Source: Candidatus Sulfomarinibacteraceae bacterium
Lineage (GTDB): Bacteria > Acidobacteriota > Thermoanaerobaculia > Thermoanaerobaculales > Sulfomarinibacteraceae
DNA: 64,000 nt
Assembly (NCBI GenBank): GCA_963796455.1
Contig: CAWCLO010000006.1
Coordinates: forward strand, 64,001-128,000
Reading direction: 5' to 3'
A program made the position numbers and the translations under genes. Shown here piece by piece: positions 5,293 to 5,468 of the stretch. Positions within the stretch are counted from its first letter, which is position 1. Each line of letters starts with the position of its first letter. The notes under the pieces were generated by a model. That model was given only the letters and a program-made list of their open reading frames with translations, was not told where the DNA came from and made no database searches.

Positions 5293-5320
5293 AAAAAACC
5301 CGCAGCCTGGGCTGCGGGTT
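5293..5320 (-). terminator. Intrinsic terminator of the met attenuator
   Basis: Minus strand: AACCCGCAGC-CCAG-GCTGCGGGTT-TTTT, a perfect GC stem plus U-tract lying between the leader ORF and metY. Confidence 0.9.
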
Positions 5321-5343
5321 GGGAGCGTTGTGTCTGTTGCTAC

Positions 5344-5430
5344 TTAGTGGCCGACACCGCTCCTTCCCCGCAGCTGCGGCATGTGCATCGACATGACCAT
5401 GGCGGAGACGGAGGGGCGAAGTGCCTTCAT
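5344..5430 (-). CDS. Met-rich leader peptide (28 aa) of the met operon attenuator
   Basis: [28 protein letters not shown], with four internal AUG codons at alternating positions 11, 13, 15 and 17. Its 3' part is complementary to the terminator 5' arm. Confidence 0.85.
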
Positions 5431-5439
5431 GACTCTCTA

Positions 5440-5468
5440 TTCGTACCAGCAGGACAGTTCAGTGTCAA
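5440..5468 (-). promoter_or_regulatory. Sigma70-type promoter of the met leader/operon
   Basis: TTGACA (5468-5463), 17 nt spacer, TACGAA (5445-5440; imperfect -10). It lies 9 nt upstream of the leader ATG. Confidence 0.6.

Follow-up and report, generated by a model that had tools for sequence, protein, structure and literature searches.

The window, by which we mean the whole stretch of 64,000 nucleotides that was analyzed, carries on its minus strand the genes metY, metX, ask and asd, preceded by a leader region with two short open reading frames (leader ORF 1 and uORF2). The features discussed below are as follows, in the order of transcription.

5463..5468, minus strand: -35 box TTGACA, conserved in position in relatives
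5439..5445, minus strand: probable -10 element, separated from the -35 box by 17 nt
5344..5430, minus strand: leader ORF 1, 28 aa, with a conserved Met register
5402..5413, minus strand: segment 1 (protector arm), paired with 5371-5360 in the minimum-energy fold
5353..5374, minus strand: segment 2 (antiterminator 5' arm, core GCGGG), within leader ORF 1; core paired in 23/23 leaders
5311..5334, minus strand: segment 3 (antiterminator 3' arm), whose CCCGC is shared as the terminator 5' arm
5293..5320, minus strand: intrinsic terminator hairpin (3:4) with U6 tract, backed by covariation
5273..5278, minus strand: SD of uORF2, AAGGAG; an SD also precedes uORF2 in relatives
5148..5267, minus strand: uORF2, 39 aa, beginning MSDRMRMRR (CGA AUG CGA AUG), in the -1 frame relative to metY
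5238..5246, minus strand: predicted anti-SD arm, starting directly after the last uORF2 Met codon (5249-5247); fold of -19.5 kcal/mol
5182..5192, minus strand: metY SD (GGAG) with its spacer, base-paired to the anti-SD arm in the fold
3842..5179, minus strand: metY, O-acetylhomoserine sulfhydrylase, 445 aa (NCBIfam TIGR01326, 675 bits, above cutoff)
2772..3860, minus strand: metX, homoserine O-acetyltransferase (NF001209 above cutoff, TIGR01392 below)
1417..2775, minus strand: aspartate kinase (ask), with an ACT domain and without a homoserine dehydrogenase domain (TIGR00657 above cutoff)
360..1433, minus strand: asd, aspartate-semialdehyde dehydrogenase (TIGR00978 above cutoff)

The original prediction named the operon metY-metX-ask-asd, and each of the four names is backed by an NCBIfam model above cutoff. 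Neighboring genes are separated by short gaps or overlap, as do the start of ask and the stop of metX. An alternative in-frame AUG of metY at 5194 has no SD match and is thus a less likely start. Among 50 loci examined, 47 have a metX match 3' of metY. The distribution of metY itself is patchy, with an orthologue to this query in only 4 of 25 genomes of the genus. A homoserine dehydrogenase gene lies elsewhere in the source genome (contig C1, around position 476800), adjoining AT-rich DNA. Directly upstream of the leader is a DUF302 gene (5567-5962, minus strand), which is found beside the leader in few relatives. Short degenerate repeats occupy the intergenic regions, of a GGAATTC type around 5560-5525 (before the promoter) and of a GCTATC type around 270-200 (after asd), and similar low-complexity repeats precede metG and metK. 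ARAGORN identified seven tRNA-Asp(GUC) genes and one Asp(AUC) in the source genome, where nearly all other anticodons are single; the surplus tRNA-Asp genes may be a repeat or prophage feature.

Leader ORF 1 has internal Met codons at 5400, 5394, 5388 and 5382 (codons 11, 13, 15 and 17). At the Met frequency of the source genome (1.98%), at least four Met in seven codons are expected with p = 5e-6, and any four among 27 codons with p = 0.002. The sequence TTGAC occurs 36-40 nt 5' of the leader AUG in 22 of 23 leaders, L013 being a variant. A promoter scan returned no canonical sigma-70 site at the leader, where the -10 hexamer has no T at its sixth position; what stands of the TTGACA promoter first proposed is hence the -35 box and its conserved position, not a scored canonical site. 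The geometry of the region suggests that transcription starts a few nucleotides before the leader AUG and that translation is near-leaderless, which would explain why leader ORF 1 has no SD. Across the source genome the TTGAC-to-ATG spacing showed no sharp peak, and general leaderless transcription was not borne out. The unconstrained fold combines helix 1:2 with the terminator (-66.2 kcal/mol, z = -3.3), and none of 200 shuffles was as stable. The terminator hairpin (5320-5297) has a computed energy of -19.2 kcal/mol, with U6 ending at 5293, and the antiterminator (5374-5311) of -34.0 kcal/mol. The TTGACA box, the 28-codon ORF with its four internal AUGs, the arms, the antiterminator and the terminator all lie where the original prediction had placed them. 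One part of that description has to be corrected: it had metY following the terminator directly, whereas a second Met-rich ORF begins within the 114 nt that separate the two.

The leader is tightly associated with metY. In the MetY tree the family of the window clusters with L055, a Thermoanaerobaculales locus, which places the source organism in this order of the Acidobacteriota. A metY orthologue (identity of at least 62%) is present in 16 of 61 related genomes. Upstream DNA is available for 15 of these orthologues, and all 15 carry the element (the 16th, L012, is truncated). Together with 8 further loci of the order that carry the leader, this gave a set of 23. A covariance model built from these 23 leaders and run against 101 genomes of the order gave 29 full-length matches of at least 43 bits, the next match being partial (35.5 bits); 21 of the 29 are training sequences or duplicates, and all 8 new ones precede metY. 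Hence, the leader precedes metY in 31 of the 31 Thermoanaerobaculales loci with readable upstream DNA, 23 of which built the model and 8 of which were found by it. In the source genome we found no second copy of the element, weak model matches being ordinary terminators or coding DNA, and no Met leader directly before metG, metK, hom or two homocysteine-methyltransferase genes. The 14 paralogue loci are without any short Met-rich ORF, and a short pattern search in 11 genomes of the phylum gave background only. In other families of the class, our own reading of the sequences identified a Met/Cys leader in 16 of 18 close MetY loci. In one family (L039, L041, L043 and L046) the leader stops directly after the Met/Cys run and is followed by a long GC hairpin, then by a separate terminator about 70 nt on. 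Among distant loci (at most 59% identity, 60 analyzable) a Met-cluster filter flagged 6; Met-rich short ORFs lie 5' of distant metY genes in L112, L115 and L129 (Propioniciclava, Ruminococcus and Alistipes).

One might have expected the hairpin to be the ordinary terminator of the upstream DUF302 gene or of a small RNA, the rest being chance, since a same-strand gene ends at 5567 and terminator-like sites do arise in shuffled sequences (0.9 expected). This explanation is barely credible: the sequence upstream changes between genomes while the element stays with metY, and conservation extends to both the Met register and the antiterminator arm.

The Met cluster, whose conservation in relatives was a prediction from the single sequence, was indeed found in them, in a fixed register to the antiterminator arm. 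Of the 23 leaders, 22 have a Met codon at position -17 relative to arm 2 (23 after a one-codon manual shift of L069), 21 have one at -23 and 19 have one at -11. Internal ATGs of leader ORF 1 are in frame in 92 cases and out of frame in one, and the spacer codons between them are free. The spacing between AUGs is 6 nt in 54 of 70 cases and a multiple of three in 69 of 70 (including 3 and 9). In the sensing window of the 23 leaders Met makes up 38% of the codons (2% genome-wide), Cys 5%, Thr 4% and Ile 1%, and Lys is absent; Thr, Ile and Lys are thus scarce even though ask and asd belong to the operon. The leader peptides are otherwise unconserved, AUG alone being fixed by position.

We then assessed the three helices separately. 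The terminator has 97.4% of its alignment cells paired and 27 two-sided changes, with 0 of 500 shuffles as high, counts that are inflated by kinship; its U tract is interrupted in several relatives. The five core pairs of the antiterminator are 100% paired in 23 of 23 leaders and invariant apart from G-U wobble. In a MAFFT alignment, the inner antiterminator columns showed covariation not above shuffles (278/500), and the inner helices shift register between sequences. Alignment-free duplexes of the inner arms averaged -18.0 kcal/mol with their own partner versus -13.7 kcal/mol with foreign ones; the own partner was preferred to the mean in 21 of 23 leaders and was the best in 7. For helix 1:2 the native mean was -18.5 versus -16.6 kcal/mol for crosses, with the own partner best in 2 of 23. 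Hence, the compensatory changes that the first proposal led one to look for are present in the terminator, while helix 1:2, whose pairing has weak specificity across the family, and the inner antiterminator have no clear column covariation.

The switch itself was modeled by folding with and without a ribosome footprint, assumed to reach 9 nt beyond the A-site codon. In line with the original prediction, the change from antiterminator to terminator in the window falls between codons 16 and 17: the antiterminator has a probability of 0.85-1.0 as long as the A site is at codons 5-16, and the terminator one of at least 0.95 from codon 17 onwards and when no ribosome is present. With this assumed footprint, a ribosome at the last Met codon (-11) leads to termination. 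At equilibrium, 15 of 23 leaders switch at the Met cluster and the other 8 stay terminated even with a stalled ribosome. In folds of nascent RNA the terminator arm is sequestered in 23 of 23, the long antiterminator helix appearing in the per-sequence folds; in a control on short transcripts with the ribosome past the arm, the terminator arm is also sequestered in 8 of 23. Eight leaders form the antiterminator in nascent RNA only, so kinetics would have to decide there.

No riboswitch or T-box model fits the leader. An Rfam search over 4800-6200, with E values up to 10, gave no SAM or T-box match, which bears out the expectation that such elements would be excluded; the best match at the leader was Trp_leader, at 16.7 bits against a gathering score of 41. 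Searches of 15 leader loci returned no SAM riboswitch or T-box at the gathering score, and neither SAM-I nor a T-box was found in the source genome (90.5% complete). Among regulator proteins the search covered MetJ, which had no match in that genome. In 15 close MetY loci outside Acidobacteriota we identified SAM-I only in 5, a Met/Cys leader together with SAM-I in 4, and the leader only in 6, one of which (L060) has an undefined start. The four double loci (L064, L066, L067 and L072) belong to Ignavibacteria or Bacteroidetes and carry a Met/Cys leader with its own terminator, then SAM-I with a second terminator, about 420 nt before metY; their sister loci L062, L063 and L068 have SAM-I only. 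Among Acidimicrobiia metY loci, SAM-I is present in L057 and L058 and Met leaders in L056, L059, L060 and L070, again with CGA-AUG.

These results support the reading of the leader as a methionine-sensing leader-peptide attenuator, the Met cluster and the terminator being conserved and no SAM or T-box element fitting. As far as sequence analysis can tell, the leader is very probably a transcription attenuator that senses Met-tRNA. RNA polymerase would start a few bases 5' of leader ORF 1, with a ribosome trailing behind. When charged elongator Met-tRNA is scarce, the ribosome would stall at the AUG codons 17-29 nt before segment 2, masking segment 1 and leaving segment 2 free; helix 2:3 would then form, the terminator would be blocked and metY-metX-ask-asd transcribed. 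When Met is plentiful, the ribosome would enter segment 2 and the terminator would form. With no ribosome loaded, helix 1:2 would form, and again the terminator. The anatomy, conservation, codon register, terminator covariation and modeled switch were computed; translation of leader ORF 1, ribosome stalling and termination are what we infer from them. Every sequence test run, except that of the 1:2 hairpin, fits a classical attenuator with an unusual control codon. Because the leader terminates by default when untranslated, and its initiation requires fMet-tRNA, deep Met starvation could switch induction off unless the initiator tRNA remains charged; induction hence needs fMet-tRNA to outlast elongator Met-tRNA. 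Selective-charging theory predicts that the initiator tRNA stays charged longer than elongator Met-tRNA.

The source organism appears to use the classical attenuation mechanism, because a five-His leader precedes hisG in the same window. This His attenuator (43628-43575, minus strand) has the leader MNVLHHHHHDDIPNGAR, then a terminator hairpin and U tract, before hisG at 43487. The gene encodes ATP phosphoribosyltransferase (Pfam HisG), and Rfam gave at this leader only a weak Thr_leader match (23.6 of 55 bits). A Trp-Trp leader candidate on contig C3 was dropped, having no plausible downstream gene.

While the attenuator reading is supported for this first stage, it is incomplete, as a second and probably translational Met-codon element follows the terminator. 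The SD of uORF2, which had been missed, begins 15 nt past the U tract; the ORF crosses the SD and AUG of metY and stops 29 nt within the gene. We found uORF2 in 27 of 31 loci (22 of 23 training and 5 of 8 held-out); the covariance model did not include its region. Four loci lack it: L169, as well as L016, L162 and L167, in which about 25-45 nt separate the terminator from the metY start. The distance between the uORF2 and metY AUGs takes 11 values between 73 and 112 nt, all of them 1 mod 3; if each length change were free, the odds of such a constant frame would be about (1/3)^10. All 27 copies of uORF2 keep to the -1 frame and stay open across the SD and AUG of metY. Its stop codon is located 17-59 nt beyond the AUG, mostly at 29. 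Its internal ATGs are in frame 40 times versus once out of frame. As a background, 4 of 733 ordinary genes are preceded by a comparable feature, and there the frames show no bias (5 to 5). The loci with uORF2 form one clade in a quick MetY tree (SH-aLRT 89), hence only the indel events count as independent.

In the window and 7 relatives, the bases after the last uORF2 Met codon pair with the metY SD and spacer in the predicted fold, and in two sub-groups the arms have changed yet complementary sequences. Masking the anti-SD arm in these 8 loci lowers the opening energy of the metY ribosome-binding site by 3-9 kcal/mol, matched by at most 1 of 40 shuffles (1/40 for the window's own switch). 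The shuffle test covered 13 of 22 loci, chosen after a first folding, of which 8 passed and 5 failed; the switch is hence present in 8 of 22 overall, as the 9 other loci had no clear switch in the first folding, and in none of the second family. RNAalifold, run on 8 uORF2 regions, gave no consensus for the stem. At the level of sequence, the anti-SD stem is confined to some members of one family. For loci without it, we propose occlusion by elongating ribosomes, the sole mechanism on offer.

In 30 of 40 cases an internal uORF2 Met is preceded by CGA, a codon with a genome-wide share of 0.9%; other Arg codons do not occur at this position. Slow inosine wobble is not needed as a reason for CGA, since a tRNA-Arg(UCG) gene is present in the source genome. 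We also rejected the idea that a programmed +1 frameshift joins uORF2 to MetY, because many loci have a closed metY frame: in 7 of 22 it contains a stop at most 57 nt from the metY AUG, and in 14 of 22 one downstream of the uORF2 start. The fixed CGA-AUG pair may act in its own right, either by amplifying stalls or as a decoding signal that is sensitive to SAM or sulfur.

We lean towards uORF2 being a translational second stage of Met sensing, an assignment that is somewhat favored by its frame constraint and the position of its Met codons. Ribosomes would load at uORF2 on the read-through RNA. When Met is plentiful, they would cross the metY SD and AUG in the -1 frame, the anti-SD stem would re-form, and metY initiation would stay low. 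When Met is scarce, they would stall at the Arg-Met repeats about 70 nt upstream, masking the anti-SD arm and leaving the metY start free. The frame constraint is computed; translation of uORF2 and the repressive direction of the second stage are presumed. An unlikely alternative keeps the first stage and makes uORF2 a device of positive coupling, whose ribosomes melt the stem, terminate inside metY and re-initiate backwards, setting a basal level without repression. The uORF2 stop lies close past the metY AUG, the stem hides the metY SD in part of the family, and an equilibrium model gives no direction, all of which such coupling would accommodate. Yet a frame ending right at the start codon, such as that of the metX-ask junction, would suit coupling better, whereas every uORF2 reads through; the usual stop falls on conserved Phe-Glu codons of metY and looks incidental, and the Met cluster and its position beside the anti-SD arm would be left unexplained.

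Doubtful, and slightly more so than coupling, is the idea that the leaders sense a broader sulfur amino-acid or SAM state rather than Met-tRNA alone, through Cys-tRNA or through slow CGA-AUG decoding by way of tRNA modification or the nascent peptide. It would account for the Cys codons between Met codons in 10 of 23 leaders of the order and in most leaders outside it, which are mostly Met/Cys, as well as for the CGA bias in uORF2. Against it, the sensing window is free of Cys in leader ORF 1 of the window and in 13 of 23 leaders, AUG alone is fixed in position in otherwise unconserved peptides, and with its own tRNA-Arg(UCG) the cell need not use inosine wobble at CGA. The pure-Met composition first proposed therefore holds for the leader of the window and these leaders, and has to be qualified for those with Cys in the sensing window.

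The 6-nt spacing of the AUGs and the fixed hexamer repeat of uORF2 also evoke AUG-NNN repeats bound by a TRAP-like RNA-binding protein or by a DNA-binding repressor, the ORFs being incidental. Such a site would have no need for spacings in multiples of three, for AUGs so overwhelmingly in frame in both ORFs, or for a start codon kept at a fixed promoter distance or behind an SD; together with the lack of a MetJ match in the source genome, this makes a binding site very improbable.

On the sequence evidence, the region is thus likely to be a two-stage, ribosome-read methionine switch in series, acting on transcription and then on translation, and if so the cell may read its methionine supply twice through ribosomes. 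A more specific view, to which we give even chances, is that two serial AUG-codon sensors read one uncharged tRNA: a near-leaderless attenuator, then a repressive, SD-led, out-of-frame uORF released by CGA-AUG stalling. The latter would be a bacterial counterpart of the eukaryotic overlapping-uORF layout, of which the ATF4-like arrangement is an example, and the system would be evolutionarily interchangeable with SAM-I. If true, uORF2 is an overlapping out-of-frame uORF serving as an amino-acid sensor of bacterial translation initiation.

Leader-peptide sensing looks self-defeating for Met, the amino acid with which translation of the leader itself begins. A conserved AUG-based attenuator would therefore imply that elongator and initiator Met-tRNA are unequally uncharged in vivo, and the leader would be a small, portable reporter for testing this. 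It would also fill a regulatory gap for met genes in Acidobacteriota without S-box, T-box or MetJ, and illustrates how one slot before metY swaps between a SAM riboswitch, a leader peptide and the two combined. Comparative attenuator surveys reportedly noted Met codons in a Pasteurellales thr leader. Our literature search, which covered few subscription papers, returned predicted Met leaders only and no tested Met attenuator, and in the literature searched we found no description of an overlapping out-of-frame uORF as a bacterial Met sensor. The remark that no well-characterized pure-Met leader is known thus stands as far as tested cases go, and has to be complemented by the putative Met leader peptides in print.

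The known systems allow the two stages to be placed. Classical attenuators are those of the trp, his, thr, leu, ilv and phe leaders (mechanism in the consulted parts of PMC8079986, PMC4007540 and bioRxiv 10.1101/834739). The leader shares with them a short ORF with codons for the end product, the 1:2, 2:3 and 3:4 helices, a U-tract terminator and a switch in codon register. It differs in that its control codon, AUG, is also the initiator, Met alternates with free codons, the start is probably near-leaderless, a second ORF follows, and no Rfam family covers it. The closest putative relatives are Deide_09379 of Deinococcus deserti, a leaderless Met leader peptide before the Met-tRNA ligase gene metG (PMC4007540, Table S9), and metL of Streptomyces lividans, a Met leader before metNIQ without a typical intrinsic terminator (PMC8079986, consulted sections). 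Each is a short, leaderless ORF that carries internal Met codons and stands upstream of Met-related genes, and the Deide_09379 peptide also has an Arg-Met pair, as does uORF2. Unlike the present leader, they are listed as putative, neither precedes metY, and the consulted material of PMC8079986 and PMC4007540 contains no functional test of them and no conservation or antiterminator analysis. In Actinobacteria, the consulted part of a survey reports no conserved RNA structures before methionine operons (PMC1262725).

For the second stage, the nearest parallel is the mycobacterial polycysteine sORF Ms5788A, where a stalled ribosome blocks a stem that hides a downstream SD (bioRxiv 10.1101/834739, consulted part). 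In uORF2, too, a stall at control codons is proposed to free a downstream SD. According to the same part of that source, the leaderless Ms5788A senses Cys and uses the codon tract itself for pairing with the SD region, whereas uORF2 is SD-led, has its arm immediately downstream of the Met codons, and crosses the start codon out of frame. Two stages in one leader also have precedents in the excerpts consulted. The rtpA (anti-TRAP) leader of Bacillus subtilis combines transcriptional and translational sensing of one uncharged tRNA in tandem, but its first stage is a T-box instead of a leader peptide and it senses Trp (PMC10327191). Salmonella mgtCBR has two short ORFs, mgtM and mgtP, in series in one leader; unlike here, both act on transcription and respond to different signals, ATP and proline (PMC3641672). 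Swaps between sensing systems are described in PMC2965389, which in the part consulted makes no mention of metY. Finally, the SAM-I riboswitch (RF00162) differs in relying on an aptamer, which neither this leader nor the rest of the source genome was found to contain, and it occupies the same slot before metY in related loci, alone or behind a Met/Cys leader.
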